A stretch of DNA of 64,000 nt from Patescibacteria group bacterium. Its GTDB lineage: Bacteria > Patescibacteriota > Minisyncoccia > Phycocordibacterales > UBA2100. The notes beneath the pieces are model-generated. The model did no database searches and was not told where the DNA came from. It saw only the letters and a list, made by a program, of their open reading frames with translations. A program made the translations under genes and the position numbers. Shown piece by piece: positions 48,321 through 64,000 of the stretch; position 1 is the first letter of the stretch, and the number at the start of each line of letters is the position of its first letter. Location of the stretch: the NCBI GenBank assembly GCA_038064835.1, contig JBBTSD010000001.1, positions 28,422 through 92,421 of the forward strand, given 5' to 3'.

Positions 48321-48713
48321 ATGGTGCGCGTAAAGATTATAGTTGCTCTGGCACTTGCAGTACTTTTGGGCGGATTCGTACTTCTTTTGTACTTGGCGCA
48401 AAGCAATGTGGCGCACAGCGTTGCTATGACAGATGATATGCAGGTGGCAATCGTACTTACACCAACCGGATATGAACCAAAAGAAGTGCGTGTAAAAAAG
48501 GGAACAACCGTTTTGTTTACCACTACCATCGGACATGCACATTGGCCATCGTCGGATTTGCATCCGTCGCACATGATTTACGCCGAGTTTGATCCGAAAC
48601 GACCACTAAAATCCGACGAGGCTTGGAGCTTTGGTTTTGACAAAGTGGGTACCTGGGGATTTCACGATCATATACGCGCCTATTTCACCGGGGTTATTTA
48701 TGTCGAAGAATAG
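48321..48713 (+). CDS. Membrane-anchored cupredoxin-like fold protein lacking the Cys copper ligand
   Basis: YEPKEVRVKKGTTVLFTTTIGHAHWP...FGFDKVGTWGFHDHIRAYFTGVIYV resembles a cupredoxin beta-sandwich with H/D/H where C/H/M would be. Confidence 0.45.
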   Translation: MVRVKIIVALALAVLLGGFVLLLYLAQSNVAHSVAMTDDMQVAIVLTPTGYEPKEVRVKKGTTVLFTTTIGHAHWPSSDLHPSHMIYAEFDPKRPLKSDEAWSFGFDKVGTWGFHDHIRAYFTGVIYVEE

Positions 48714-49914
48714 AATTCTGTTCTCTGGCGCAGGATGCTTCTTGCTTCTGTGTCTTGGGTGGCTTGTTTGGTCGTTCTTGGTGTCAGTATCGTCAAATAA
48801 TATATCGGCAATCACAGCTTGTGCCCAGGAATTTACCGGTCAATCAGAGCGGATAAATTGCTGGTATCGGTTGATTGAAAAAGAAATCATCAAAGATGGT
48901 GTGCCCGCAGGTATGCATGCCTTCACCTACATATATGACAACTATCCAGACTTTGTTTCAACAGGATGCCATGTGCATGCCCACAAAGTGGGAGACATGG
49001 TTTATTACGGCGTCTACTTGGCCGATCCTCGGCTCGAGGCACTTGAGTATCCCGATTCACTCACTGCGTGCGGCTACGGATTTTTTCACGGGTTTCTTGA
49101 ACACCTAATCCAAGATCATCCGACAACAAAATTTGTCACAGAAACATGTGAGTGGATGAGTGAGCGTCTGGAGGAAAGAATGCCCGCGATACGCACCATT
49201 TGCTATCACGGTTCCGGACATGGTTTTACTCTCGCTCAGGTAGAAAAAGTACCACAGGCGCAGTGGGGCGATCTGATTGCTTTCACTAAAGACCCGCTTG
49301 AAAAATGCGACGCTCTTTCCGTGCCGAGAGAGATTGAGCGAGAGGAGTGTCGCGAAGGCGTGTTCAATGTACTTATCAATTGGGCAGAGGGAGGTGAGTA
49401 TGGGTTTTCGTTTAATCGCGATAACCCGCTTGTGATTTGTGATGCTTTCGAGAAAAAGTGGCGACACGCATGCTATTACGAGTTTTCGCAAAAGCTGGAC
49501 CATATTGCACGAAGAGATGTGATGGAATTATGGCGGGTGGCAAATAAAATCAAAGACAGAGATGAGGCATCTGTCGTATTTCGTGTGGCCATGGCGGGCG
49601 CGGTTCAACAGACTATTGCCGACGGTACTTATATCGGCCTCACAAAGAAGTGTCTTTTGGCCGGCCCTCAAGTGGAGAACATGTGTATTGAAAGTATTGT
49701 GAATGGCCTATTTGAGCACGGTTCTCCGCGGAAAGAGCATGATAAGGCTCTCGCGTTTTGTATGGAAGAGTGGCTGAATGATGCCCAACGCACTCAATGT
49801 TATACGGCGGTTGCGACGCGGCTCTTGCGATTTCATACCAGAGAAGATGCTGATGATGATTGCAGAGACTTTCCCAAAGAGTATCAAAGCATGTGCCTTA
49901 GGGCTCGCCCATAA
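48703..49914 (+). CDS. Membrane-anchored Cys/His-rich hypothetical protein; a paralog lies at 63449-64000
   Basis: ATG at 48703 overlaps the upstream stop by 11 nt; conserved CHVHAHKVG and CGYGFFHG blocks. Confidence 0.5.
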   Translation, partial: SKNRILFSGAGCFLLLCLGWLVWSFLVSVSSNNISAITACAQEFTGQSERINCWYRLIEKEIIKDGVPAGMHAFTYIYDNYPDFVSTGCHVHAHKVGDMVYYGVYLADPRLEALEYPDSLTACGYGFFHGFLEHLIQDHPTTKFVTETCEWMSERLEERMPAIRTICYHGSGHGFTLAQVEKVPQAQWGDLIAFTKDPLEKCDALSVPREIEREECREGVFNVLINWAEGGEYGFSFNRDNPLVICDAFEKKWRHACYYEFSQKLDHIARRDVMELWRVANKIKDRDEASVVFRVAMAGAVQQTIADGTYIGLTKKCLLAGPQVENMCIESIVNGLFEHGSPRKEHDKALAFCMEEWLNDAQRTQCYTAVATRLLRFHTREDADDDCRDFPKEYQSMCLRARP

Positions 49915-50003: not shown

Positions 50004-50414
50004 ATGGCGACAATCAATCAACTCATAAAGAAAAACCGAAAGGACCCGGTGCGGCGTTCGCAGGTCATGGCACTCGGGCGCGGTTTTAATCGTCTCAAGA
50101 ATCGTCCGTCGTTCTACCCGTCTCCATTCAAGCGTGGTGTGTGCACCAAAGTAACCACCAAGACTCCTCGTAAGCCAAACTCTGCTATCCGCAAGATTGC
50201 GCGTGTGCGTTTGACAAACGGTATGGAAATCACCGCGTATATTCCTGGTGAAAAGCACACCCTGCAAGAGCACTCAGTGGTGTTGGTCCGCTCAGGTCGT
50301 GTTAAGGATGTTGGCTTGCGTTACACGGTTGTGCGTGGCAAGTTTGACGCCGCAGGTGTCGACGGGCGTCGTCGTGGCCGATCTCGCTATGGGGCCAAGA
50401 AGCCAAAGAAATAA
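50004..50414 (+). CDS. rpsL: 30S ribosomal protein S12
   Basis: [10 protein letters not shown]...[73 protein letters not shown]. Confidence 0.95.
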
Positions 50415-50438: not shown

Positions 50439-50900
50439 ATGCGCCGACCATTTAAAAAGAAGCATCGAGCTACTCCCGACCCTGTTTACGGTTCTCTACT
50501 CGTTTCCAAGCTCACCAACTATGTAATGGAGCGCGGCAAGAAAGACACTGCTCGTCGCGTTGTATACGCTATGCTCGAAGATCTCAAGAAAGAAGGTGAC
50601 CCCATTACTATCCTCGAGACGGCTATCAAGAATGTTGAGCCGGCAATGGAGGTGCGATCTCGTCGTGTGGGAGGAGCAAACTACCAAGTGCCTACCCCAG
50701 TGCGTCCTGAACGCCAGCTGGCCCTCTCTCTTCGCTGGATTATCGGCGCCGCTCGCGCAAAGAAAGGGACTCCTCTCGCACAAAAACTTTCCACAGAAAT
50801 TCTCGCGGCTCACAAAGGAACCGGAGAAGCGGTCGGCAAGCGCGACAACATGCACAAGATGGCCGAGGCCAACAAGGCATTTGCACACTTTGCGTGGTAA
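50439..50900 (+). CDS. rpsG: 30S ribosomal protein S7
   Basis: Full-length uS7 match (…ANYQVPTPVRPERQLALSLRWIIGAARAKKG…). Confidence 0.95.
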   Translation: MRRPFKKKHRATPDPVYGSLLVSKLTNYVMERGKKDTARRVVYAMLEDLKKEGDPITILETAIKNVEPAMEVRSRRVGGANYQVPTPVRPERQLALSLRWIIGAARAKKGTPLAQKLSTEILAAHKGTGEAVGKRDNMHKMAEANKAFAHFAW

Positions 50901-50962: not shown

Positions 50963-51679
50963 TCACAATTGGGTGATTTCCTTTTGTCGGGCCGCCAGCG
51001 CTCCGTACACCACCAGCTCTTCTTGGGGATCAATATCAAGCACTTTTTCAATTGCCTGGTGGTCGAGGCCTCCGAACGGGCGCAGGCGCACTCCGAGCGC
51101 TGTAGCAACGAGCGCCATGTTTTGCATGATATGACCCGCTTCAAGGAGGGCGAGCGGATACGCGAAGTCGTGGTACTTGCGCGAAGATTTTTCAAGGGAG
51201 GCAGTTAGAAGTAGTACATTCGCTCCTTGCAAAGACTCTGTTCGCGAGACATATGTCTCGACTTTTTCTTGTGTGGACAACGCCCACAGATGCTCGAGAG
51301 CATGCACATCAGGCCGGTAGTGAAAAACTGCACGCTGGAGTGTCTCGACGGAAAATGCGAGTAGATATGCTTCAATAGGATAGTACCCACCCCCAGAGGG
51401 ATATGGACGGCGTTTTCGTTCCGTGAGCTTCATCGCTCCGCCGAGCAGGTGTGAGATGTCCGAAAAAGAGAGTGGTGCGCACGCGGAGGGCATATCAGAG
51501 TTTCTCAATTCGAGCGCTCTGAAGAGGGATACTTCTGGATCAGAGAGGTGGTCCATTGGTACGAGCTCCATGCGCTCGTATCTCTTTGCCAGGCGTGTCT
51601 CGTGCAGATGTGCTGTTCCATGTGTAAAACGGCTGTCTTGAAAGTGTTGATGTATTTCCCGGTAAAGATTGTGAGGCAT
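50963..51679 (-). CDS. SagB-type (McbC-like) FMN-dependent dehydrogenase of the nitroreductase superfamily
   Basis: KRRPYPSGGGYYPIEAYL is the hallmark motif of SagB-type dehydrogenases. The likely start is at 51679 (MPHNLYRE...), 7 nt downstream of the YcaO stop; the ORF track extends it to 51796. Confidence 0.75.
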   Translation of the reverse strand: MPHNLYREIHQHFQDSRFTHGTAHLHETRLAKRYERMELVPMDHLSDPEVSLFRALELRNSDMPSACAPLSFSDISHLLGGAMKLTERKRRPYPSGGGYYPIEAYLLAFSVETLQRAVFHYRPDVHALEHLWALSTQEKVETYVSRTESLQGANVLLLTASLEKSSRKYHDFAYPLALLEAGHIMQNMALVATALGVRLRPFGGLDHQAIEKVLDIDPQEELVVYGALAARQKEITQL

Positions 51680-51686
51680 GACAGAG

Positions 51687-53216
51687 TTATGCAAACGGAT
51701 GGGGCTCCTCGGCGAAAGGAGTTTCTCGTGGAGTGTATCCGAAAAGTTTTGGAATTTCAGTGAGACGCGCACCACCAAGACAGGGAAAACGCTCATTGAT
51801 ATGCAAAGGTTGTAACTCGGGAATCACGACGAATTCCACATGCCATGGTGTCGGATTTTTCGGGGAGATGCCGAGCGGGACAGAGGCGCATCCATACCCA
51901 CGCTCTGTGCACCACCCTACGATTCTATCCAGATGTTCGTCTTTGGTGTCGTGTTCCCACATGGCTTGTACGGGCTTTTCCAGCACTCCATTGGTGAGAA
52001 ATGCGAGGCGCGCCGCGCGTTTTGTATCCGTCCAATAAACCGCGCGCTCGAAATGCTTGATGCGATGTGGCACGATTGCATCTACGCTGTAGAGGTGCCG
52101 CCACGAAGAGCGAATATTTTTTCGAATACGAAGTGCCTCGCGTATCGCATGTGCGGCCGCTTCCGACAAGCGCGCATGTACGCCAAGCCCGAGTACGACA
52201 GGAACCCCGCCAGGAGCATCATCTCGGATGACAGCGCAGACAACATGCGCAGGTGCATCCGTAGGGAGCTTGATAATATCCGCACGCAGACGATAGCGCT
52301 CCATCCGTTGCAGTAACAGCGAGAGCTCATCGGACTTGTGTGCCAAATAATCGAGCGCGATGCGTGGGCAGGTGAGCTGATTAAGCCACATGATCATAAA
52401 CGCATCGCGCTCGATTATCTCGAGCGCACCATTAAGAAGTGCAAATTCCCGTGTTGGTCCGGTAGCGAGCCCTGTAGTAATTCTGGGTCGTAGCATCGGC
52501 TCTCGTTTTTCCTGGAGATACTTTCCACTTGAAGTGATTTGTGCGGGAATATACATACGTGCGTTTGTTTTAAGGCAACGACCTCTAACCCATGCAAATG
52601 CTGAATCATGCGGTACTGCGGTGGAGCGCTGTGCTCGTTGCGCCCTAGAAAAACCCGCAAAAGAGGAAATGGGGAGGTGTCGCTTCTTGGCCATATCTTG
52701 TTCTGTGCTCCAGCACAGGCCCTGCATGTGTTCGGTGTCATAGCGCCACAGGTGTCTCTCCAGACATTCGGCAAGGGCGGAAGCCAGCGCCTGCGGGTCA
52801 GATGTCGCTGAAGACCCGCCGGCCGCCTCGTCCTTCGCGAATTGCGCGCTCCATGCGTGCATGTGTGGCTCGTCAGGCATGTGGCCGGTTTGTCGAATAC
52901 CGAGAAGTATTCCAGCATCTTGAAGATTACGCACAATAGGGCGAAGCGGCAGCATGTCGCTCTGAGAAAGACGAGTGGCGTCGCGTACCAGCTCGGCTCC
53001 AAACGAAGCCTCAACAGACTCCGCAAATGCCGCCCGTGCTTTTTCGAACACATTTCCCGAACGATACTCTGTAACGACTCGAGATACAGAGCGAAGTGTC
53101 ATGAGGGGAGTATACCAATGGGCAGATATCGTCGAGCATTGACATATCTCCGTAGCGGTTGTGTTCCGCCGGTTGTGGACACGATACCCTGATACCATGA
53201 CGCCATCTTCCGCCAT
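51687..53216 (-). CDS. YcaO-domain protein (standalone cyclodehydratase-type YcaO with a C-terminal PxPxP-like tail)
   Basis: YcaO motifs ALAECLERHLW and TTGLATGPTREFALLNGALEIIERDAFMIMW; the C-terminus is ...EEPHPFA. Confidence 0.8.
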   Translation of the reverse strand: MAEDGVMVSGYRVHNRRNTTATEICQCSTISAHWYTPLMTLRSVSRVVTEYRSGNVFEKARAAFAESVEASFGAELVRDATRLSQSDMLPLRPIVRNLQDAGILLGIRQTGHMPDEPHMHAWSAQFAKDEAAGGSSATSDPQALASALAECLERHLWRYDTEHMQGLCWSTEQDMAKKRHLPISSFAGFSRAQRAQRSTAVPHDSAFAWVRGRCLKTNARMYIPAQITSSGKYLQEKREPMLRPRITTGLATGPTREFALLNGALEIIERDAFMIMWLNQLTCPRIALDYLAHKSDELSLLLQRMERYRLRADIIKLPTDAPAHVVCAVIRDDAPGGVPVVLGLGVHARLSEAAAHAIREALRIRKNIRSSWRHLYSVDAIVPHRIKHFERAVYWTDTKRAARLAFLTNGVLEKPVQAMWEHDTKDEHLDRIVGWCTERGYGCASVPLGISPKNPTPWHVEFVVIPELQPLHINERFPCLGGARLTEIPKLFGYTPRETPFAEEPHPFA

Positions 53217-56200
53217 GAACCCTGATTCTCAAAGAACAAAAGCGTACAAGATTTCCGCACACCAAGATTCTTTGGCCGGACGCCCCGGCAAGGACACTGG
53301 CGCGGATACCGACTTGATTACTTCTAAAAACGAATGGACGGTGGCTCTGGCACATGCGCGCGCGGTGATCGAAGCAGAACTCCTCGGGAAAAAGGCACCA
53401 CAGTTTCCTTTCTCAAAGGCGCCACAGTTCCTGAGCCCGGGTACGGCAGGGGTGTGTATATGGGTTGGGGGCTCTCTCCGGGGTTCGCATATAGTCGAAG
53501 GCGCACTTTTGGGGAATGCAGTGAGCGAATCGGCGGCACAAACAGTGCAAGACCCTCGATTCAAACCGATTGCGGAAGCGGATAGTAAAAACATGAGAGT
53601 ACAGGTGAGTCAGATTTCTTCTGTGTGGGTACGCATTGATCCACGCACCGGGACGCTCGCGCACAATAAAGGGTATGCACTCGTGCACGGAGGGAAGACA
53701 GGGTGGTTTCTTCCGGAGGTTTTTAGCATACGGACATTTACCAGTATTTCACAGTTGGCACGAGCGCTGGCACGAGAAAAGTTGCATCTTCCGGAGGAAG
53801 TTGCATTCGGGAAAGATACCGAGTTGTATACATTCGAAGTATACGAGGTGGTGGAGTCTATGTGCGAGTCCGAGCTGTCAGTGGGCGGTGCTCAGACATA
53901 CCCCGTGCATCTCGATGGTCCAATACCTCGCGAAGCTCGCACTGATCGCGAGAGCTCCATCTCTCGGATGGTAGCGTATGCGGTACGCTGTTGTAACGAG
54001 GACGGCAGTATCACCTGTGCGCTATCGGAAGGGATCGCAGACGCTCGCTACGAATGGGGGAGAGCATTTTTTTCAATTGCTGCCATGGCCGAATATGCGC
54101 GCACAGCACCCTCCGCACTAACCAAGGCGGCTCATCGTGCGTATCACTACCATCGGTCACATCTTTTTGGGAAGCGTGGCGCACATCTTCCGGACACAGC
54201 GCTTTTGTATGCATACCTGGGGCACGCGGCGCTTTCCTTCGGTTTTGTAGACGATGCGCGAATGTGTTCCGAATATATTAAGGGGGTGGTCGAACGGGAA
54301 AGATTTTCTCCGATACCGTTCGGTCAAGCGGCGAGTTTCCTAAGCAGAATGATTCTGGTAGGTCTGGATATAAAAGCGCATGCCGCGGCGTACTGCTTGG
54401 CAACTCTTGCGCGCCATTTCGAAGAGGATACAAACAAGTCGACAGCGTCATATGCAGAACTTGCCACGGCAAGTGCCATCTTCTACAAAGCAACACAGAG
54501 TGAATGGGCGCTCGGTCTTGCCCGCATGACAGCGCGGTGGCTCATGAGCGAACAACTTTCTGACGGAGCGTTTAGAGGTTCGCAGTCGAGCACATCTGCA
54601 TATACACGAGGTACGGGGAAGGTAATCGAAGCGCTCGCCGAATACGCCCGTTCGTGCCCGCTTTCAGAAGACGAGCGCGCTCGCGTCGTCACCGCTATGG
54701 GTCGTGGCGAATCGTGGATGATGCGCATGCAGTATTCTGCAGAGAGTAGCTTTGCGCTATCAAAAACCTTTCGAGAGAAAGTGCAGGGGGGATTTCGTCA
54801 CGACTACTTCAGCAAAGATGCATGGCTTGATGCAGTGTGGCACTTCCTGCTTTACAAAGCGCGCCGGGAAAGCAATGACGAAAAGCGAGCACATGGTCAT
54901 CAGACGATAGAATTCTTGCCTCTGCGAAATGCCCCGCGTTTTTTTAAGGAGCACGGCGAAGATTCGCGTCTTCGCACCGACAAGTACGCTGCTCTGGGGT
55001 GGGCGTTCATGAAGAAGCTGGGTGTGGGGTCTGCAATTGAAAAATTATCCACTCGAGAGCTTCTGGATGCGTGGACAATTCTGCGACGAGCGCGCATCAC
55101 AGAGAGTGAGGTTGCGCACACTATGCGGTACATGGCGTTTCCGGACACGCCTGGATTTTTTGCGTGCCACCCAACTCTTTCCTATGAGCCTGGAAGCACC
55201 GACGGGAGGACAAAACAGCGCAGGTATGCTCATGGATTCAGTGAATCGTGGGAGCGCGCACTCGCACAGTCAGTGGGAGAAATGTATGAACGGTACTTTC
55301 TCTCGCTGTATAAGAGCAACGAGTTGCGCCTTGCGTCGGTAAATGAACTAAAGGCTGATCATGTGGCGCATCTCGACCCAGCATATCTGACTCGGCTTTC
55401 CGAATCACAAGTCAAGGCTCTCGGCTCTCGATCGTGGGACGAGAGTGTGCCGTTGCGCTGGGTGGAAGGAGTGCGGGTGAGTTCAGGCAAGAAAGTGCTT
55501 ATTCCTGCGCAACTCGTGTTTTGGAATTACTCGTGTGCGAATGACGAGGCAAGACTCTGCGAGAGCAATTCCAGCGGTCTGGGGGCAGCGGGAAGCTCTG
55601 CGGGGGCGCTTCTTGCCGGGCTACATGAAGTGTTGGAGCGGGATGCTTTTCTTGCGCACTGGCTCACTAAAACACCGCTAGAGCGCATTACTCTTGCGAG
55701 CGTGCCCGGAGAGAAATGTGCGCGCTTTGTCGACCGCGCGCGAAAGCATGGGGTTCGCATGAGTTTGTTTCGAGCAGGAACGACGGGAGGTATTGATGCA
55801 TTCTATGCGCTTCTTGAAGACGAGAGAGGTCGAGGAAATCCGCGTGTGGTGCTTGGCGGTTCCTGCAAATCGAATCCTGTGGCCGCGATTGAACGCGCCC
55901 TCGAGGAAGTGTGGTCAATATATTTCGCTGTGCGCGCAGAAGAGAAAGGCTCGTATGAACTGCTGGCCGAAGATTATGTGCCGTTCAAGAGCCCGCTTGC
56001 CATAGGCAAACGAGTGTCACTCTGGTCTCACCAAGATACCGCTCCTGAAATCTCCTTTCTTCTAAAAGTAAAAGAGCAAGACTTTAGTGTACCCTCGCGT
56101 ACTGGTACCAGGAACGCACATGAAGAGCTCCTCACAACTGTGGAAGACATTGAAAAGCAAGGGGTCGGCTACGAGGTGTTTGCGTACCATGCGGTGCACC

Positions 56201-56385
56201 CACTTCTCGCAGAGGCGGGGATATTTGCGACGCGCGTGATAGTCCCGGCGCTCATACCGCTCTACTATAGTGAACACATGGCACCGACACTGCTTACACA
56301 TCGACTTGCGCAGTGGAGCGCACAACAGGGTTTTGGGGACAAAAAGTGCGCTATTTCCAATGTGTTTCCACACCCGTACCCGTGA
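53161..56385 (+). CDS. 1074-aa fusion: AMMECR1-like N-domain (Cys->Ser in LRGCIG) + ~450-aa alpha-helical region + C-terminal YcaO domain ending PHPYP
   Basis: AMMECR1-like GVCIWVGGSLRGSHIVEGALLGNAVSESAAQTVQDPRFKPIAEAD...RVQVSQISS; YcaO motifs VGEMYERYFL and SSGLGAAGSSAGALLAGLHEVLERDAFLAHW. The true start is probably an internal ATG (~53197 or 53215), because the annotated 5' end overlaps the divergent YcaO gene. Confidence 0.75.
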   Translation: MFRRLWTRYPDTMTPSSAMNPDSQRTKAYKISAHQDSLAGRPGKDTGADTDLITSKNEWTVALAHARAVIEAELLGKKAPQFPFSKAPQFLSPGTAGVCIWVGGSLRGSHIVEGALLGNAVSESAAQTVQDPRFKPIAEADSKNMRVQVSQISSVWVRIDPRTGTLAHNKGYALVHGGKTGWFLPEVFSIRTFTSISQLARALAREKLHLPEEVAFGKDTELYTFEVYEVVESMCESELSVGGAQTYPVHLDGPIPREARTDRESSISRMVAYAVRCCNEDGSITCALSEGIADARYEWGRAFFSIAAMAEYARTAPSALTKAAHRAYHYHRSHLFGKRGAHLPDTALLYAYLGHAALSFGFVDDARMCSEYIKGVVERERFSPIPFGQAASFLSRMILVGLDIKAHAAAYCLATLARHFEEDTNKSTASYAELATASAIFYKATQSEWALGLARMTARWLMSEQLSDGAFRGSQSSTSAYTRGTGKVIEALAEYARSCPLSEDERARVVTAMGRGESWMMRMQYSAESSFALSKTFREKVQGGFRHDYFSKDAWLDAVWHFLLYKARRESNDEKRAHGHQTIEFLPLRNAPRFFKEHGEDSRLRTDKYAALGWAFMKKLGVGSAIEKLSTRELLDAWTILRRARITESEVAHTMRYMAFPDTPGFFACHPTLSYEPGSTDGRTKQRRYAHGFSESWERALAQSVGEMYERYFLSLYKSNELRLASVNELKADHVAHLDPAYLTRLSESQVKALGSRSWDESVPLRWVEGVRVSSGKKVLIPAQLVFWNYSCANDEARLCESNSSGLGAAGSSAGALLAGLHEVLERDAFLAHWLTKTPLERITLASVPGEKCARFVDRARKHGVRMSLFRAGTTGGIDAFYALLEDERGRGNPRVVLGGSCKSNPVAAIERALEEVWSIYFAVRAEEKGSYELLAEDYVPFKSPLAIGKRVSLWSHQDTAPEISFLLKVKEQDFSVPSRTGTRNAHEELLTTVEDIEKQGVGYEVFAYHAVHPLLAEAGIFATRVIVPALIPLYYSEHMAPTLLTHRLAQWSAQQGFGDKKCAISNVFPHPYP

Positions 56386-56470: not shown

Positions 56471-56947
56471 GTGTTCGGAACGCGGTACTATGTGTGCATG
56501 GTTGCGGTCCAAGTATCAAAAGATTTTTTGAGGCGGGCTGGGTATGCGCTTTTGGTAATACTCGGTGTGGGTTTATCGTTAGGCGCCCTCTTGTTCCCTC
56601 GCGCATCCGGCACTTCACACGGGCTGACTGGAAAGGACACAGCCCATGCGGATGTCCCTGGTTGCGGAGGGGGAGGATGCGCTGAATCATGTGGTAGCTC
56701 ATGTGGTAGCTCATGCGACAGTTCATGCGACAGTTCATGCTCGTCATGCACGGCGTGTAGCACGGATGGGGGGTGTGATTCAGGGTGTTCATGTGATTGT
56801 GGTTGTGCTGGTGGGTGTGGAGGGGACTGTTCTGGTGGGTGTAGCGATGGGTGTGGCTCGGCTGATGGGTGTGGCTCGGCTGATGGGTGCGGGTGTGGAT
56901 GCTCCGAAGGTGGTGGAGGAGGTGAGGGCGAAGGAGAGGGCGCTTAG
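56471..56947 (+). CDS. Putative RiPP (TOMM-type) precursor: hydrophobic or signal-like leader + ~95-aa Cys/Ser/Gly/Asp-rich core (25+ Cys)
   Basis: The core is GCGGGGCAESCGSSCGSSCDSSCDSSCSSCTACSTDGGCDSGCSCDCGCAGGCGGDCSGGCSDGCGSADGCGSADGCGCGCSEGGGGGEGEGEGA. The alternative ATG is at 56498 (MVAVQVSKDFLRRAGYALLVILGVGLSLGALLF...). It sits immediately downstream of the YcaO fusion gene. Confidence 0.6.
   Translation: MFGTRYYVCMVAVQVSKDFLRRAGYALLVILGVGLSLGALLFPRASGTSHGLTGKDTAHADVPGCGGGGCAESCGSSCGSSCDSSCDSSCSSCTACSTDGGCDSGCSCDCGCAGGCGGDCSGGCSDGCGSADGCGSADGCGCGCSEGGGGGEGEGEGA
56686..56900 (+). repeat. Short in-frame tandem nucleotide repeats (12-18 nt units) inside the precursor core
   Basis: TCATGTGGTAGC x2, TCATGCGACAGT x2, GATGGGTGTGGCTCGGCT x2 plus a partial copy; these encode SCGS/SCDS/DGCGSA repeats. 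Confidence 0.7.
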
Positions 56948-56982: not shown

Positions 56983-58104
56983 ATGCAAGCAGAAAGTTTG
57001 AAATCAATATATCGGGGAGTTTTCATAATCGCTTTTCTCGCAGTTTCTGTGGTCGCCTTCTATGTTCAATACGAGTTAAAAGGACAGAGTGCGATGTCTA
57101 AGGAGGAAATCCGCGGGGCAGAAGAGCTCGCGCTTCGTGGCCAATATGATAAGGCACTTGCGATGGCTCGGAATACAGCCAGTGCCGCCTCGGACCCTCG
57201 CAGTATCTTTGACGCGCGACTCACGGCCATATTTTCTGCTTTTATGGGAGGGGATACTGACGCCAGGCTTGCAGCTGTGCGAGTCGCGAAAGAGCAGTAT
57301 GCGATTGCCGCCGAGCCGCGTGAGCGCTCATACATAATCGGTATGCTCATTGGTTTTATTACAATAGATAGAAACCCAAAAGTGTTCGGAGAGGTATTTT
57401 CAGGAGATATCTTTGGCGCACTTCGCGCAAAAGATGGAGATCCTTTGGTTTCTCTAAAGAATCTTGCAGAGCTTTCTATAGTCGAAAACCCAACATCAGG
57501 AGCATATCTCCAGATAGCGACGCTCGACGCCGCTCGTATTCTAGGCGCCAAAGCTCTCAAGCTTAGCAAGGAAGATCGGCAAGCCCATGCTAAAAACATA
57601 CTCACATTGCTCGAATCCGCGGCGGCTGTTTTTTCCGATGAGCGCACGCATATTCCCCGTACACTCTTCGGCAAGCTTCAGTTCGCGAGTTACTACAGCC
57701 GGACAGGATATCTGTACGGTGCGGTGGCACTAGTTATCCCTGATTATTTCAAGCAATCGGAGGAGGCGTATCAGACGCTCTATGCACTTCGCGCAAAAGA
57801 AGAGGGTGGGAAGCAAGGCCTGATTTCGTCATGGGTTCCTCATGCGTATCTCAATCATGCACTGTATCTTGATTCGGTCGGGGGTGTTTCTAGGCGCGGA
57901 GATATGCAAGAAGTACTCAGCTCGCTGGTTGGTTTAGTGCAAGCCGATCGGGCTGTGCACGAAAAATCCTTCCTGGGTTTCTTGCGCAACGCGAAAGAAA
58001 TGGAAGCGAAGTATGGTTCGTATGACGCCAAGAACCTACGCCACCTTGCGACCTTATCTCCAGAGCTCAAAGATTTCCTAGTCCAAGAAGGGTGGATATT
58101 CTAA
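56983..58104 (+). CDS. Membrane-anchored alpha-helical hypothetical protein; last gene of the inserted island
   Basis: N-terminal TM (VFIIAFLAVSVVAFYV); the remainder is predicted helical; no family recognised. Confidence 0.5.
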   Translation: MQAESLKSIYRGVFIIAFLAVSVVAFYVQYELKGQSAMSKEEIRGAEELALRGQYDKALAMARNTASAASDPRSIFDARLTAIFSAFMGGDTDARLAAVRVAKEQYAIAAEPRERSYIIGMLIGFITIDRNPKVFGEVFSGDIFGALRAKDGDPLVSLKNLAELSIVENPTSGAYLQIATLDAARILGAKALKLSKEDRQAHAKNILTLLESAAAVFSDERTHIPRTLFGKLQFASYYSRTGYLYGAVALVIPDYFKQSEEAYQTLYALRAKEEGGKQGLISSWVPHAYLNHALYLDSVGGVSRRGDMQEVLSSLVGLVQADRAVHEKSFLGFLRNAKEMEAKYGSYDAKNLRHLATLSPELKDFLVQEGWIF

Positions 58105-58126
58105 AAGTATCCTGCGCGATTATTTT

Positions 58127-58154
58127 TTGCAATTACGCTGTAGTCTGTTATAGT
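58127..58154 (+). promoter_or_regulatory. Sigma70-like promoter (TTGCAA-16 nt-TATAGT) upstream of fusA, followed by a small UUCG-loop hairpin + T-run (58160-58185)
   Basis: Hexamers seen directly; it would give fusA its own promoter downstream of the insertion. Confidence 0.3.
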
Positions 58155-58208
58155 TCGGTGGTCGCTTCGGCGGTTTTTATTTTAACTAAGTATCTGTTTT
58201 ATTCCCCT

Positions 58209-60353
58209 ATGAATCGAGATTATCCACTGGAGAGGGTGCGCAACTTCGGCATCATCGCACACATCGACGCGGGCAAGACCACCACCTCTGAGCGTATTCT
58301 CTTTTACACGGGTGAATCTCATAAAATCGGTGAAGTGCACGACGGTAACACCGTGACCGACTGGATGGAACAGGAGCGCGAACGAGGTATCACGATTACC
58401 GCCGCCGCAATCACTTGTTTCTGGAATCCTTCGTACATGGGCACCGACCTCTCATTCAAACATCGTTTCAATATCATCGATACTCCAGGCCACATCGACT
58501 TCACTTCTGAAGTACAACGATCAATGCGCGTCCTCGACGGCGCGATTGTCGTGTTTGACGGTGTTGCTGGTGTAGAGCCACAGACCGAGACCAACTGGCG
58601 CTACGCCGAAGATGCAAAAGTACCCCGTCTTTGTTTCGTGAATAAGCTTGACCGCACAGGCGCATCTTTTGATAAATCGTTTGGCATGATTCGCGAGCGG
58701 CTGTCGAAAAACGCGGTGCGTATGCAAATTCCTATTGGCGAAGAAGATGCGCTTGAAGGCGTCATTAATCTTATAGATATGCAGGCGTTTCGTTTTGAGG
58801 GAGACAAGGGGCGCGTCGTCATTCCTATGCCGGTACCCGAATCTCACAAAGCAGAGGCAGAGAAGTACCGTGCCGAACTCATCGAAGCGATCGTCGAGCA
58901 CGACGAGGTGCTTATGACAGGATACCTTGAGGGGAAGGAACCGACCGTCCCTGTGCTTAAAGCCACGCTCAGGAAGGCAGTTATCGAAAATAAAATCTTC
59001 CCCACCTTCTGTGGTTCCGCACTTAAAAATGTTGGAGTCCAGCTGGTCCTTGATGGTGTTGTGGACTACCTCCCGACACCGCTTGACCTTCCGCCAGCAA
59101 AGGGAATCCATCCTGATACAGGCGAAGTGATCGAACGCAAACCAGCCGACTCTGAGCCATTCTCTGCGCTTATTTTTAAACTCCAGACTGACCCGTTTGT
59201 AGGTCAGCTCTCATTCTTTCGCGTATATTCAGGTCAACTAGAGGTGGGAAGCTATGTCTACAATGCATCAAATGGCACCAAGGAGCGTGTTGGCCGTATG
59301 GTTCGCCTCCAGGCCGACAAACGAGAAGAAATAAAAAAGGTGTTCACTGGTGAAATCGCGGCACTCTTGGGCGCAAAGGATGCCAAGATTGGGCACACCA
59401 TTTGTGATGAAAAGAATCCAATAATTCTCGAAGAGATTAAATTCCGTCAGCCAGTTCTCTCTGCTCGTATTGAGCCAAAGACCAAGGGCGATCAAGAAAA
59501 GATGGGTATGGCATTAGCAAAACTTTCCGACGAAGATCCAACATTCCGTATTCGCAGTGACGAGGAAACAGGCGACACCATCGTGTCCGGTATGGGCGAG
59601 CTCCATCTCGATATCATTGTTGATCGGATGCGTCGCGAGTTTGGCGTTGAGGCAACACTCGGCAAGCCGCAAGTCGCTTACCGCGAGACCATTCAGGGTA
59701 GTGCTGAAGTTGAAAATAAATACATCAAGCAGACCGGAGGTCGCGGGCAGTACGGCCATGTCAAAATTCGCGTCAAACCACTCGAGCCATTGGTGGAAGG
59801 CAAGAAGATTCCTGCAAATACGACTCGTGAAGACCACTTTGAGTTCATTAATACCGTTAAAGGAGGCGCAATTCCTCAGGAATATATTCCTGCTGTCGAG
59901 AAGGGTATTCGTGAAGCGCTTGAGCGCGGAGTCCTTGCGGGTTATCCGGTTGTCGATGTCTCTGTCGAGTTGTTTGACGGGTCGTTTCATGAAGTCGACT
60001 CATCCGAAATTGCCTTCAAGATTGCCGGTTCCATGGCGTTTCAGGAGGCTGCACGACAGGCACGACTTGCGCTCCTTGAGCCAATTATGAAAATCGAAGT
60101 TGTTACCCCGGACAAATTCATGGGCGATGTTACGGGTAATCTCAATGGCAAGCGCGGACAAGTACAATCTATCGACGATCGCTCAGGCGGCCTCAAAGTT
60201 ATTATTGCGCATGTACCGCTCTCTGAAATGTTTGGGTACACCACAGCACTTCGTTCGATGACTGAAGGCCGTGCGACATCCATGATGGAATTCGATCATT
60301 ATGCAACGGTACCAAAGAATGTAGCAGATGAGGTTGTTGCAAGTAGAAAGTAG
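58209..60353 (+). CDS. fusA: Elongation factor G
   Basis: MNRDYPLERVRNFGIIAHIDAGKTTTSERILFYTG...; full-length EF-G. The ORF track opens at 58092; the true ATG is at 58209. Confidence 0.95.
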   Translation: MNRDYPLERVRNFGIIAHIDAGKTTTSERILFYTGESHKIGEVHDGNTVTDWMEQERERGITITAAAITCFWNPSYMGTDLSFKHRFNIIDTPGHIDFTSEVQRSMRVLDGAIVVFDGVAGVEPQTETNWRYAEDAKVPRLCFVNKLDRTGASFDKSFGMIRERLSKNAVRMQIPIGEEDALEGVINLIDMQAFRFEGDKGRVVIPMPVPESHKAEAEKYRAELIEAIVEHDEVLMTGYLEGKEPTVPVLKATLRKAVIENKIFPTFCGSALKNVGVQLVLDGVVDYLPTPLDLPPAKGIHPDTGEVIERKPADSEPFSALIFKLQTDPFVGQLSFFRVYSGQLEVGSYVYNASNGTKERVGRMVRLQADKREEIKKVFTGEIAALLGAKDAKIGHTICDEKNPIILEEIKFRQPVLSARIEPKTKGDQEKMGMALAKLSDEDPTFRIRSDEETGDTIVSGMGELHLDIIVDRMRREFGVEATLGKPQVAYRETIQGSAEVENKYIKQTGGRGQYGHVKIRVKPLEPLVEGKKIPANTTREDHFEFINTVKGGAIPQEYIPAVEKGIREALERGVLAGYPVVDVSVELFDGSFHEVDSSEIAFKIAGSMAFQEAARQARLALLEPIMKIEVVTPDKFMGDVTGNLNGKRGQVQSIDDRSGGLKVIIAHVPLSEMFGYTTALRSMTEGRATSMMEFDHYATVPKNVADEVVASRK

Positions 60354-60370: not shown

Positions 60371-61999
60371 CTACGGTGTTGCCGTGGTGATGCAATGCAG
60401 AGCGTTATTAAAGGTCGGGACATAGGTCCGGCTCGTCTCTTGATCATACAAAATCTTGCCAACAATCCTTTCTGGGAACTGGATGTGACCTAGTTCTTTT
60501 CCTGTTGTAGGGTCGATTTTGTACAAGACACCGTCGTTCGAACCTATAAACAACGAACCCTTGATGAGGGCAGGGCTACTAAAGATTCTCCCGCGTGTCA
60601 AAAATTTCCAATGCAGTTTTTTATGCACGGTGTCGTAGGAGTAGACAAACTTATCGAGTGAGTTGATGAATAGTGTATCGCCAGTCCATAGTGGGGTGGA
60701 GTATATCGCCTCGAGTGTTTCAAATGTATCTGAGATGGCTAGAGTCTTGGTGTCAATAATATGACACTTCTTGTCGAATGCTCCGAAGGCGACTTTCGAT
60801 CCATCAGATTTTTCTGCAAACGATGCACGAATCGGCGCGCCGATAGTATGCTCCTGTAGTTGTTCGCCTGTTTTCGCACGGTACATTCGGACAATCCCAT
60901 CATTAGAGCCACAGAAGAGCAGATTATTTTTTTCAGACACATAGGGAGAGCAGTGGGTAAGACCGGTGTGCTGACCACGCCACCGTTCTTCTCCTGTCTC
61001 TGGGTCAAGTGCTACAACGGCGCCTCGTTTTTTCCAGAGACCAAATTCGAGACCAATGTACAGTAGGTTATTTTTTGTGGAAACGGCAGGAGAAGATCCG
61101 ATCCAGTCAGCATCCATAAATACCCACTTTGTTTTGCCTGTTTTTGCATCGAGTGCGTACAGATTGCCGTCGTACGCACCAAAGTACACGATATCGTTGA
61201 ATACCAGGGGTGAAGAATAGATCATTTTCCCCTTGTCTCCAAAACGGACCGTGTGGGTCCAGAGAGTAGAACCGTTTTGTTTATTGATACAGTAAAATAC
61301 GCCCGAATCAGTACCAAAAAGTAATGTGTCCCCATGCATTACCGGTGTCGACTTGGGGACAACATTTTTGTAATTCACTGAGGTGGGAGAAGTGGTGAAT
61401 GTCCAATGATGGGTAAATGGGAGTGGTTGTAGCTCGCGTACATTTTCAAAATTCCTGACACCCAACGACTCTTGGAAATCGTTGAGTTCGAAAAGGGTGA
61501 CAAGGCGGATGCCATTTTGTGTCAGAAAATCGTAAAACGAAGTATCTCGGAAACGCACAAGGCAAAAAATTGCCTCGACCTGCAATCCCGCCTCCCGCAA
61601 TGTGGCGATCTGCTTCTCTACAGACTTCCCGCTATTCAAAATGTCGTCTACCAGAATGATGGGCTCTTGTGTAGGTGATCCTTCAATGGACTTGTGTAAG
61701 TCGTGTTTCTTCCTGCCTTTGCGTATAAAAAGACCATTTGCCCTAATGTTGCGTGTTTCAGCAGAAAAAACCAGGGTGGTCAAAAGAGGGATGGATGCTG
61801 ATTCAAGGCCGCATACTTGGAGGGTTTGCTTGTCTGGAAACGCCTCGAAAAAAGCCGTCGCATATACATCCATAAATTCCTTCGTCATGCTGACATTTCG
61901 AAAATCAAAAATCCATCGCTCCTCGCCTGTGTCTTGGAACCGTGAAAAAGTCTTTTGCTCAATCAGTTTCTTTAATGCCGCATGTCGTGGAGAGCTCAT
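60371..61999 (-). CDS. Fusion of a type-I phosphoribosyltransferase-like domain and a PQQ-like beta-propeller repeat domain
   Basis: PRPP-binding-like EPIILVDDILNSGKS; the C-terminal half has repeated G.LYALDA.TGK..W / ALDPETGEERW PQQ-type blades. Confidence 0.55.
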   Translation of the reverse strand: MSSPRHAALKKLIEQKTFSRFQDTGEERWIFDFRNVSMTKEFMDVYATAFFEAFPDKQTLQVCGLESASIPLLTTLVFSAETRNIRANGLFIRKGRKKHDLHKSIEGSPTQEPIILVDDILNSGKSVEKQIATLREAGLQVEAIFCLVRFRDTSFYDFLTQNGIRLVTLFELNDFQESLGVRNFENVRELQPLPFTHHWTFTTSPTSVNYKNVVPKSTPVMHGDTLLFGTDSGVFYCINKQNGSTLWTHTVRFGDKGKMIYSSPLVFNDIVYFGAYDGNLYALDAKTGKTKWVFMDADWIGSSPAVSTKNNLLYIGLEFGLWKKRGAVVALDPETGEERWRGQHTGLTHCSPYVSEKNNLLFCGSNDGIVRMYRAKTGEQLQEHTIGAPIRASFAEKSDGSKVAFGAFDKKCHIIDTKTLAISDTFETLEAIYSTPLWTGDTLFINSLDKFVYSYDTVHKKLHWKFLTRGRIFSSPALIKGSLFIGSNDGVLYKIDPTTGKELGHIQFPERIVGKILYDQETSRTYVPTFNNALHCITTATP

Positions 62000-63492
62000 T
62001 GTCTTTTGAAGGTTGCGTACAGCACTGCGCTACAGGCACCCAGGATCGATAGAATCCACAAAAGCCAATATCCCGATACCAGGTTCTCAAGGAGTTTTTC
62101 GTTTTTTATAAGGTCGGGAGAGACTTTTATCTGCGGGCTGATATCGTACGCAAATCCATTTTTAAATATGGGGGTATCAAGGACCTGGGCGTTGTCGGTA
62201 CGAATCCATTCGTTATGTGCAAATGGACGATATTCGAGGACACACACATCCTCAACATCAACAATCCTTTCATATTTCTCACCGTTGATGGAGTGGTCGA
62301 ATGTCCATGAAATTCGCGCAACAGAGTCGTCCCGCATGCATTTTGTTTTCAGGGGGAACCAGTAGCGATAGGGGTCGCAGCGATTATTGGCGACATGATT
62401 TTCTCGAGCAAGGACAATTGGCTCGGTGTTGCCAGTGCTATAGACAGTGGCTTTCGAGAAGCATTGATGGTTTGCTTCAAACATGTACATGCCGTAGTAG
62501 TTTCCCTCAAGTGTTTTTTTCTGATCTCCAGGGATAAGGATCCCCGTGAGTTGCCCCGCCAATAAGAAAAGAAGGAATAGGTACCCGAGTAAAGTATTCC
62601 GCGTTATTCTTTTAATGTGGAAGTGTCCCTGTTGTGAAAACAAGATAAAGAGGGCGGGGATCGAGATTGCGATATAGCGGTAGTTCACAATAATACCCGA
62701 ATAGATGTGGAAGAGGAGGAAATAGGTGAGCGCAGCGGTCTGAAGCAGCCTTCTATTTGAGAGAAGGAACCAGCTACCAACCATTTGCATCACGATCACG
62801 ATATTCGTAAAGAAGGGAAGAATTGCATGATTAAACAAGGGTGCTCCGGTAAAGAGCGAGTTGAAGTAGTTGGCAAAAATCCAGCCACCATCAATTTTTA
62901 TACTTGAGGCCAATACATACAGAAATACAAAAGTGATTTTTGCAAAATACTCTTTTTCGCGCATGAACAGCCATACGAATGCGAGCGCCATGTCGTAATA
63001 ATCAAAATTTCCTGTCAGGCCATAGGTAAAGAAAAATCCGACGATTACTTTCCAGATAAGACAGGAAAGGATGACGACATGAGCAGAAGTCCAATCCTTG
63101 CGGTATGCCGCATAGACACCGTAGCTTAAGGCGAGGAATAGGAGTAGGTAGAATGCGCTCTGACTGTATCCATAGGGAAGTGACTCGAGAAAAAGGTATT
63201 CGCCACAGGATGGAAAATATGGTGGGCAGACATGGAGGCCATTTTGATAAGTAGAGATGCTAATGAAATTCTTTTCAACCCACCCGAAAAAAGTAATGAA
63301 AAAAGAGAGACTTAGAGCATAAAAGAGTAGCTGAAGGACAGGGCTACTTTCAATCTCCTGAATAGCAAAGAACTGGTAATATCTTCTCTTTAAATTGAAC
63401 ACCATGAGTATGATAGTATAGGCAAGTCGTCCCTCAAGCAAAGTGCCTATGCTTAGTCGAAAAGAAGTTGCATTTATACTACTGGTCATCAT
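61996..63492 (-). CDS. Polytopic integral membrane protein (~10 TM) with a C-terminal soluble Cys-containing domain; possibly HTTM/VKGC-like (unverified)
   Basis: A long hydrophobic N-terminal two-thirds; no motif confirmed. The start may be an internal Met (~63408), because the annotated 5' end overlaps the divergent gene. Confidence 0.45.
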   Translation of the reverse strand: MMTSSINATSFRLSIGTLLEGRLAYTIILMVFNLKRRYYQFFAIQEIESSPVLQLLFYALSLSFFITFFGWVEKNFISISTYQNGLHVCPPYFPSCGEYLFLESLPYGYSQSAFYLLLFLALSYGVYAAYRKDWTSAHVVILSCLIWKVIVGFFFTYGLTGNFDYYDMALAFVWLFMREKEYFAKITFVFLYVLASSIKIDGGWIFANYFNSLFTGAPLFNHAILPFFTNIVIVMQMVGSWFLLSNRRLLQTAALTYFLLFHIYSGIIVNYRYIAISIPALFILFSQQGHFHIKRITRNTLLGYLFLLFLLAGQLTGILIPGDQKKTLEGNYYGMYMFEANHQCFSKATVYSTGNTEPIVLARENHVANNRCDPYRYWFPLKTKCMRDDSVARISWTFDHSINGEKYERIVDVEDVCVLEYRPFAHNEWIRTDNAQVLDTPIFKNGFAYDISPQIKVSPDLIKNEKLLENLVSGYWLLWILSILGACSAVLYATFKRQ

Positions 63493-64000
63493 CTCGTCTT
63501 TTGCAGGTCACCAGTATGTCCAAGAGCTACGGACAAAGAACATAGCAGATTTCTACACCATCATCGAAAACCAAGAGAAGATTAAGGATGATGTTCCGAT
63601 CACTCCTGAAGACTTCTCAGCAATTCAACAGTGCGGGAGGGTTGCAAAAAGTAGCGGCGCCAGCATGGAAGAGTGCGCGCGTGATTTTTATGATAAGTAC
63701 ACCATGAAGCACGGTGGAGAGGCGGCATTTGCGCACCTGGCTCGACTCCAAAAGGAGCATCCCGATCTACTGCCAAGTTGCCATTACATCTCCCATGGTA
63801 TTGGGCATGCAGTTTTGCGCCAGAATAATAACGACCCTTACAAAGCTTTTGCTTTTATGCAGTCAGGAGGATATTTCAAGAATGTAGTTACCTGCGGGAA
63901 CGGCTTTTTCCACGGTGTTATCGAAGAAATTGCAAAAAAAATTAAGGACAAAGATCAGCTTGTTGAGGTGTTGGGTTCTGTATGCGCAAATGAGAAGATA
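63449..64000 (+). CDS. 3'-partial gene: membrane-anchored Cys/His-rich protein, paralog of the 48703-49914 gene
   Basis: I translated frame 63449 by hand: MLSRKEVAFILLVIISSFAGHQ...SCHYISHGIGHAV...TCGNGFFHGVIEEI..., which parallels CHVHAHKVG...CGYGFFHGFLEHL. It runs off the window end and is not in the ORF track. Confidence 0.4.
   Translation, partial: MLSRKEVAFILLVIISSFAGHQYVQELRTKNIADFYTIIENQEKIKDDVPITPEDFSAIQQCGRVAKSSGASMEECARDFYDKYTMKHGGEAAFAHLARLQKEHPDLLPSCHYISHGIGHAVLRQNNNDPYKAFAFMQSGGYFKNVVTCGNGFFHGVIEEIAKKIKDKDQLVEVLGSVCANEKI

Follow-up and report, generated by a model that had tools for sequence, protein, structure and literature searches.

YcaO proteins normally need a partner, which may be an E1-like 'C' protein with a recognition element (RRE) for peptides that are made by ribosomes and modified after translation (RiPPs), an Ocin-ThiF-like protein or TfuA, in order to find and process their peptide. 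In the cyanobactin heterocyclases LynD, TruD, PatD and MusD, an N-terminal partner module, made up of an RRE and an E1-like domain, and a C-terminal YcaO are carried on one polypeptide, and the BCD synthetases of thiazole/oxazole-modified microcins (TOMMs) or linear azol(in)e-containing peptides (LAPs), such as SagBCD and McbBCD, combine a YcaO with a SagB-type dehydrogenase and a Cys/Ser/Gly-rich peptide. Genomes of the candidate phyla radiation (CPR) hold 110 YcaO(+nitroreductase) clusters in 93 genomes (Sharrar et al. 2020, PMC7298704), and AMMECR1 is not mentioned for the LAP clusters described there. AMMECR1, an ancient family to which no function has been assigned and one human member of which is a disease gene, has a duplicated RAGNYA fold (Balaji and Aravind, PMC2034487); its active site was predicted to consist of the RGChG motif, the 'absolutely conserved' and presumably catalytic Cys of which points into a cleft, together with a DxR-aromatic motif, and it is partnered by a radical SAM enzyme and by a dioxygenase (PMC2034487). 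Here, we describe a stretch of 64,000 nucleotides from a Patescibacteria group bacterium (contig JBBTSD010000001.1, positions 28,422 to 92,421; hereafter the window), in which a single open reading frame (ORF; 53161..56385, + strand) joins an AMMECR1 domain, an (alpha/alpha)6 barrel, a tether and a YcaO module, as read from its translation, Pfam matches and database records. The first two domains recur beside YcaO genes in many CPR genomes, and may take the place of the C protein.

The ORF runs uninterrupted over 1074 codons from a GTG at 53161. Two alternative starts exist, ATG 53197 in the NCBI record (1062 aa) and ATG 53215 in the output of gene callers (1056 aa; protein P0001), and one of these two is likely the real start; residue numbers below are those of P0001, unless marked as ORF numbering (1074 aa). 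The P0001 sequence is identical on eight contigs, with one NCBI assembly and three Logan runs among their source samples, and the same architecture is found in five further proteins at about 30-38% identity. An origin of the fusion in a frameshift or in faulty assembly is excluded, since several samples yielded these eight contigs with the identical ORF and divergent fusions are known too, and the initial annotation of the ORF as one gene holds. All the motifs which that annotation had quoted are present in P0001 on the + strand, namely LRGS (residues 88-91; 53476-53487), DPRFKP (113-118; 53551-53568), the E-x-x-ER motif GEMYER (688-693; 55276-55293), the E-x-x-ERD motif EVLERD (805-810; 55627-55644) and the C-terminal PHPYP, a PxPxP (1052-1056; 56368-56382).

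The N-terminal AMMECR1-fold domain (residues 38-222; 53326..53880, +) matches Pfam PF01871 over ORF residues 64-227 with 38.9 bits (gathering score, 25); the isolated N-terminus of the fusion scores 42.6 bits, and other family members 25.9-49 bits. An AlphaFold2 model of the AMMECR1 domain and the barrel (residues 40-553, from an alignment of 37 sequences) reached a mean predicted local distance difference test (pLDDT) value of 92.3 and a predicted template modelling score (pTM) of 0.91, with pLDDT >90 over the AMMECR1 domain. When this model was compared with the PDB by Foldseek, the top matches were the three solved AMMECR1 proteins, 1vaj (E 1.6e-9; target-normalised template modelling score 0.76), 1zq7 and 1wsc, followed by (alpha/alpha)6 barrels, and the modelled domain has the two-lobed duplicated RAGNYA fold of PH0010/MM0484/ST0229. 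Profile and predicted fold agree, then, with the first reading of the N-terminus as AMMECR1, although the domain comprises about 185 aa and not 150; a GWFLPEV segment (53701-53721, +) also lies within it.

In P0001, DPRF and the R-G of RGChG are kept, while the Cys is replaced by Ser (LRGSHI), as had been noticed at the outset. This replacement is a property of the whole family and not a lesion of a single gene: among the 135 members with a scorable motif, the canonical Cys position is occupied by Ser in 119 (~88%), by Cys in 11, including the fusion P0024 with its LRGC, and by other residues in five, and the R-G and D-x-R-F/Y are kept in the family. When aligned to 1zq7 by HMMER, the sequence has a 2-residue gap at LRGS, so that its exact equivalence to the canonical Cys rests on the alternation of Ser and Cys within the family. 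Because the two alternate at this position, the RG(S/C) site would seem to be under selection, with a hydroxyl or a thiol both able to serve. The family shares with AMMECR1 and AmmeMemoRadiSam protein A the fold, the DxR-aromatic motif, G-x-x-LP and the R-G of RGChG, and differs from them in its predominant Ser and its C-terminal (alpha/alpha)6 barrel; against the TIGR04335 cutoff of 99 bits for AmmeMemoRadiSam system protein A, the fusion reaches 36-40 bits. Its genomic partner is likewise YcaO/SagB rather than a radical SAM enzyme and a Memo-like dioxygenase, and no radical SAM or Memo family was found among the annotated genes within ~10 kb in the window and the related loci surveyed.

Between the AMMECR1 and YcaO domains, a helical region of ~450 residues had been proposed. 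Its layout is different, since the AlphaFold2 models divide it into an (alpha/alpha)6 barrel of ~330 aa ('MID'; residues 223-553; 53881..54873, +), a flexible tether of ~55-60 aa and the N-terminal part of the YcaO module. The barrel has no Pfam or NCBIfam match, so that the region still has no family that can be named. Its profile detects squalene-hopene cyclase repeats weakly (E 2.5e-4), through two motifs of the Q-x-x-DG-x-F type, and the related (alpha/alpha)6 barrels are those of the class II terpene cyclase/prenyltransferase type (squalene-hopene cyclase, drimenyl-PP synthase 8zg0, 8paj). A LanC-like, prenyltransferase or terpene-cyclase function was rejected, as the barrel has neither a DxDD motif nor a conserved zinc site (Cys-Cys-His or Asp-Cys-His). 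About 15 polar or aromatic residues of the barrel are invariant across the family, which also keeps YTRGTGK (54601-54621, +), GGFRHD (54787-54804, +) and W-x-D-x3-H (54823-54843, +) unchanged. Polar residues are strongly conserved in both N-terminal domains, as would be expected of a specific site for binding or catalysis, and the conserved motif of the peptides could be its counterpart. The tether (residues 554-612; 54874..55050, +) is modelled with low confidence (pLDDT <50 at residues 556-564, 569-574 and 581-612), and corresponds to the poorly conserved N-terminus of separate partner YcaOs in our alignment A5. These N-termini, which are otherwise variable, retain the short motifs F-L-P and then R-Y-x-x-P, the first of which persists in the tether of the fusion as IEFLPLRN (54874-55050); they may be docking motifs for the AMMECR1+barrel protein.

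The YcaO module (residues 613-1056; 55051..56385, +) is well folded from about residue 613 in the model of the full-length fusion (pLDDT 88.1). It matches Pfam PF02624 over ORF residues 692-1031 with 167.7 bits (model positions 2-324 of 325), and aligns to TIGR03604, the SagD family, over model positions 2-377 with 179.6 bits. Foldseek places LynD (7e-15), MusD and TruD nearest to it, with the archaeal thioamide-forming YcaOs after them, and a profile search of the PDB likewise returned TruD (2e-31), MusD and LynD. GEMYER and EVLERD, the ATP/Mg-binding acidic motifs, are invariant in alignment A5. The fusion ends in FPHPYP and the partner YcaOs end in PHPFP, where P497, P499, H500, P501 and P503 are invariant or nearly so; a C-terminal PxPxP motif is associated with azoline-forming YcaOs. 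The identification of the C-terminus as a YcaO is therefore sound on both profiles, both intact motifs and the PxPxP tail.

The fusion turned out to be the minority form of a larger, split family. When 1.84 billion representatives were searched exhaustively by HMMER, a profile of the barrel gave 535 matches, 230 of them at E <= 1e-30, and the family comprises about 230 clusters at 50% identity, nearly all of them from CPR. A word-index search had given seven matches, with one other fusion only (P0002, 33% identity) and a few AMMECR1+barrel proteins of ~630 aa without YcaO; the extreme rarity that this implied was abandoned in view of the profile search. Most members are standalone proteins of 600-660 aa (~630) in which AMMECR1 and barrel occur without YcaO. 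Six YcaO fusions were recognized by Pfam among the best 150 matches, namely P0001, P0002, P0021, P0024, P0140 and the N-truncated P0084. In a MAFFT/neighbour-joining tree of the barrel domain, all six fusions share one clade of 8 tips, which suggests that the fusion probably arose once; a tree built from the match columns of hmmsearch -A, in which the fusions were scattered, gave inconsistent identities and was discarded for this one. At all loci whose contig includes the N-terminal part of the gene, an AMMECR1 domain precedes the barrel. At one locus (L028), just the gene's end is available, and a few short database proteins, as well as the truncated P0084, have no AMMECR1 match. Most standalone homologues, P0003-P0007 among them, possess an additional conserved N-terminal domain of ~110 aa (e.g. 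10001-10336 in locus L003) with the pattern ..LEWLSG...F.FPL.FGD.P...W...F.S.E.E..ER and no Pfam match; it is missing from the window fusion and present in the fusion P0024.

A scan of GTDB species representatives identified 24 loci, almost all in CPR, including Parcubacteria/Paceibacterota, Moranbacteria, Taylor- and Wolfebacteria and metagenome-assembled genomes (MAGs) labelled Saccharibacteria; the others belong to one deltaproteobacterium and one Bdellovibrionales MAG. The deltaproteobacterial MAG (L027, 7988-11910 on a 7-Mb contig) encodes an 800-aa version with a longer N-terminus, whose ORF has ~380 nt in common with the longest possible ORF for the YcaO downstream. The pair of AMMECR1+barrel and YcaO thus exists outside CPR as well, possibly through transfer.

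Gene neighbourhoods were surveyed in 28 non-redundant loci, of which a subset of 13 have at least 5 kb on both sides. A YcaO was found in 16 of the 28 loci (fused in two, and starting within 60 bp downstream in seven) and in 11 of the 13 with long flanks; SagB in 11 and 8, respectively; a protein in which a phosphoribosyltransferase (PRTase)-like domain is fused to a beta-propeller in 16 and 8, usually directly adjacent and often overlapping or divergent; and a peptide with a transmembrane (TM) helix and an A-x-A-D motif in 13 and 6. Either a YcaO or a PRTase-propeller gene was present in all 13 long-flank loci. The seven loci with a separate AMMECR1+barrel gene followed by YcaO within 60 bp are L003, L012, L017, L020, L022, L027 and L033, and their YcaOs can be aligned over their entire length to the C-terminal half of the fusion, tether region included (alignment A5), share with it a conserved W..I..YL.RAGI helix and end in PHPFP. 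Judged by these alignments, AMMECR1+barrel and YcaO are a fusion/fission (Rosetta-stone) pair.

Two further components of the window cluster would be expected of a TOMM/LAP-type pathway. Adjacent to the YcaO genes lies a SagB-type dehydrogenase that depends on flavin mononucleotide and has the nitroreductase fold (50963..51796, -), with 112.9 bits for TIGR03605 against a cutoff of 78.4 and a match to Pfam Nitroreductase, and directly downstream of the fusion lies a candidate precursor peptide with a Cys/Ser-rich core (56471..56947, +; 149 aa from the probable ATG at 56498), for which homologous peptides exist in 12 other loci. It has a basic N-terminus, a TM helix, a spacer and A-H-A-D-V-P (MVAVQVSKDFLRRAGYALLVILGVGLSLGALLF...KDTAHADVPG), followed by a tail of 98 residues with 22 Cys, 32 Gly and 19 Ser. 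Its core (56687-56942) is built in part of perfect tandem repeats of 12 nt (TCATGTGGTAGC, TCATGCGACAGT) and 18 nt (GATGGGTGTGGCTCGGCT), which encode SCGS/SCDS and GCGSAD. Peptides of the same layout occur in 13 loci: the N-terminus is basic, 20-35 residues of spacer separate a single TM helix from the motif A-[SHNKRY]-A-D-[VLAG]-[PAG], and a short acidic Gly/Ser/Cys tail follows. No more than 1-6 Cys are found in the homologues from other genomes, and the window peptide is the extreme, repeat-expanded example of its family; the repeat sequence is the same on all four contigs of the window organism that were compared, and the expansion looks recent. Public gene callers place a different frame here (56646/56652-56951; 99-101 aa, Val/His/Ala-rich), which has no homologues and was rejected for the frame 56471/56498-56947 because the latter matches the peptides beside related enzymes in other loci. 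The true precursor gene is therefore probably mis-annotated in deposited genomes. Use of the A-x-A|D motif as a signal-peptidase I site was judged unlikely, since it lies ~20-35 residues beyond the hydrophobic segment.

How these parts may work together can be proposed as follows. The fusion would be a single-chain version of a two-protein heterocyclase, in a TOMM/LAP-type pathway characteristic of CPR. Its C-terminal YcaO would use ATP to activate amides of the backbone, and would thereby cyclodehydrate Cys residues of the peptide tail, and perhaps Ser as well, to azolines, which the SagB-type flavoprotein would oxidise to azoles, and the AMMECR1 domain and barrel would take the place that the E1-like/RRE domains of the C protein have in LynD/TruD, probably binding the A-x-A-D-V/L-P segment of the precursor and/or activating the YcaO. 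In most relatives, the module is a separate protein encoded beside its YcaO, and in the window lineage the two genes have been fused via the flexible tether. We infer azoline and then azole formation on the adjacent peptide, the presumed substrate of the system, because the YcaO motifs and PxPxP are intact, a SagB is adjacent, the peptides are Cys/Ser-rich and the cyanobactin heterocyclases are closest; it is, above all, the role of the AMMECR1+barrel module that we infer. Since no E1-like or RRE domain is detectable and AMMECR1+barrel is conserved beside YcaO or fused N-terminally to it, we consider the chance about even that this module functions in the way the C protein does elsewhere, binding A-x-A-D-V/L-P and/or activating the YcaO. 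The initial suggestion that the middle region replaces the missing E1-like/RRE partner thereby gains a conserved gene order in many CPR genomes and falls short of proof.

Compared with the known systems, the window fusion resembles the cyanobactin heterocyclases, its closest solved relatives by profile and fold, in the order of an N-terminal partner module and a C-terminal YcaO on one chain, in the ATP-binding motifs and in the PxPxP tail. In contrast to their RRE and E1-like module, it carries AMMECR1 and a barrel, with no homology detected between the two modules, as well as a flexible tether, and a TM helix takes the place of the soluble leader in its precursor. With the BCD synthetases, including the LAP clusters of CPR, the window cluster has in common the YcaO, the SagB-type dehydrogenase and the Cys/Ser/Gly-rich peptide. 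Unlike them, its family has no detectable E1-like C protein: no Pfam or NCBIfam match to E1-like, ThiF-like (Ocin-ThiF-like proteins included) or PqqD/RRE families was obtained at E <= 10 for any cluster protein or accessory N-terminus. AMMECR1+barrel is conserved in its stead, and the conserved accessories are PRTase-propeller and TM-anchored helical proteins. What is new is therefore the partner module and the unusual membrane-anchored precursor, while the YcaO/SagB pathway is of a kind already known. A literature search, of incomplete coverage, gave no joint mention of AMMECR1 and YcaO, and found no such partner described under AMMECR1 and RiPP, YcaO and CPR/Patescibacteria/Parcubacteria, or YcaO and fused or E1-like partners. 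In public records, the fusion is named only 'AMMECR1 domain-containing protein' (MEK7627840.1, Patescibacteria group bacterium). Within these bounds, its first description as a novel combination can be kept.

Several observations weigh against a role as counterpart of the C protein. An RRE is hard to detect by hidden Markov models, and the ~110-aa extension, which could be a cryptic peptide-binding (RRE-like) domain, or the N-termini of the YcaOs could hide one. The module is not strictly tied to YcaO, because in L018 and L023, with flanks of ~8.5-10 kb, AMMECR1+barrel stands beside PRTase-propeller with no YcaO in range. Both window YcaOs miss the curated TIGR03604 cutoff of 219.25. The orientation of the modules is undefined in the full-length model, with its pTM of 0.69 and a tether of pLDDT <50, and a contact of the module with peptide or YcaO is a proposal. 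Finally, so high an invariance of R, K, E, H, D and W residues, together with Ser/Cys at the predicted AMMECR1 active site, is more usual for enzymes than for scaffolds that bind a leader.

This last point leads to the alternative that the AMMECR1+barrel module is a tailoring enzyme acting beside the YcaO, either as a leader peptidase at A-x-A|D or as an acyl or group transferase, with the Ser/Cys of RG(S/C) and/or the R-H-D...W-D...H pocket of the barrel as active site. We regard it as the main rival, possible but rather unlikely. The family-wide retention of RG(C/S) and the DxR-aromatic motif, with Ser (119) or Cys (11) in a nucleophile-type position where the Cys has been predicted to be catalytic (PMC2034487), speaks for it, as do the ~15 invariant residues of a barrel whose fold class is mostly enzymatic. 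A leader peptidase would also be wanted, since no conserved peptidase was seen among the annotated genes of the cluster in the window and related loci, and PRTase-propeller, which adjoins AMMECR1+barrel genes more often than any other gene does, even with no YcaO nearby, keeps the module's company in L018 and L023. However, the module has no similarity to known peptidase or transferase families, nor the conserved DxDD of class II terpene cyclases or the Cys/His zinc site of LanC and prenyltransferases, and its fusion to YcaO in the N-to-C order of E1/RRE-YcaO fits a subunit relationship at least equally well. The more specific form, in which the AMMECR1 domain itself would be catalytic on the peptide via RG(S/C) and the barrel pocket, by leader cleavage at A-x-A|D or by acyl/group transfer onto the YcaO-activated backbone, appears improbable.

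More doubtful still, in our estimation, is the possibility that the YcaOs carry out another amide-activation chemistry, such as thioamidation, amidine/macroamidine formation or an ATP-dependent cleavage of the MusD type, for which the module would supply a nucleophile or hold the substrate. Several YcaO chemistries are known, the closest solved structures include MusD (7u58, 'YcaO-mediated ATP-dependent peptidase activity'), and both YcaOs stay under the SagD-family cutoff. Division of labour between YcaO paralogues is a feature of bottromycin-type pathways, which the two paralogues of the window cluster bring to mind. Yet a SagB over its curated cutoff is adjacent in the window and SagB accompanies the family in 11 loci, no gene resembling TfuA was seen, Cys/Ser are abundant in the peptide tails, and the C-terminal PxPxP with its azoline association is present. 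The second of these paralogues is a standalone YcaO on the opposite strand (51687..53216, -; 51687-53102, 471 aa, by gene callers), which scores 147 bits for Pfam and 187.1 bits for TIGR03604 over the same model range as the fusion, has intact ECLER and EIIERD motifs and ends in PHPFA. It is so divergent from the YcaO module at 55051-56385 that their mutual match reaches only E ~4e-12. Most related loci have a single YcaO within their flanks, and the sole YcaO of locus L004 is of the standalone 'YcaO_1' type.

That the substrate is a housekeeping protein, e.g. a ribosomal protein, and not a small peptide is very improbable: the window cluster does lie in the str operon between rpsG and fusA, and some related YcaOs bear the database name 'ribosomal protein S12 methylthiotransferase accessory factor', but this location is unique to the window genome (0/27 other loci), on which ground a link to S12 modification was rejected as well, the TM/Cys-rich peptide gene is conserved beside the enzymes in 13 loci, and the S12 label is inherited from E. 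coli YcaO, whose own role is unproven (PMC7550191).

The cluster, then, is a TOMM/LAP-like set inserted in the str operon, the genes of which, rpsL (50004-50414, +) and rpsG (50439-50900, +) on one side and fusA (58092-60353, +) on the other, it interrupts with its YcaO, SagB and peptide genes. Upstream of fusA, a TM-anchored helical protein of 373 aa and no known family (56983..58104, +) has homologues in L003 and L017. It belongs to an all-helical family of ~365-405 aa with no Pfam or NCBIfam match, which recurs downstream of peptide genes (L003 13893-15110 and 15073-16257; L004 8773-9957; L017 9239-10336), is duplicated in L003, and several members of which end in ...GW(K/I)F. Beyond fusA lie a PRTase-like domain fused to a pyrroloquinoline quinone (PQQ)-like beta-propeller (60371..61999, -), with a loop of the phosphoribosyl pyrophosphate (PRPP) type, IILVDDILNSGKS, and a polytopic membrane protein (61996-63492, -). 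A second peptide of the precursor family, MSLQKISKLLRF...TASADVPGGSAGG..., is encoded ~740 nt past the right end of the window (L006 21529-21834); it is Ser/Gly/Asp-rich and has one Cys. Upstream of it lies a paralogue of a 427-aa Cys-containing protein of the window (48631-49914), and the window includes the start of this paralogue as a partial ORF (63443-64000). The system may span ~17 kb with two substrates. An assignment as an anti-phage defence system was rejected, as PADLOC matched none of the genes except for a marginal PRTase match, and a scan of the window cluster for promoters and terminators gave background levels.

If the AMMECR1+barrel module does serve the YcaO as proposed, a conserved partner that is structurally unrelated to E1-like/RRE proteins, Ocin-ThiF-like proteins and TfuA would widen the rules for mining and engineering RiPP pathways, and would account for the ability of the many YcaO+nitroreductase clusters in CPR to work with no C protein. 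For AMMECR1, the window context makes its biochemistry testable, as it offers defined neighbours, a candidate peptide substrate and natural Ser/Cys variants, and, if the AMMECR1 domain were catalytic, a substrate and a biochemical reaction would for the first time be defined for the AMMECR1 superfamily, and the module would represent a third class of YcaO partner besides E1-like/RRE proteins and TfuA. For the bacteria themselves, the peptides, which are membrane-anchored and carry acidic Cys/Gly-rich tails, may be a cell-surface product of these ultra-small episymbionts, with possible roles in host attachment, metal binding or antagonism.

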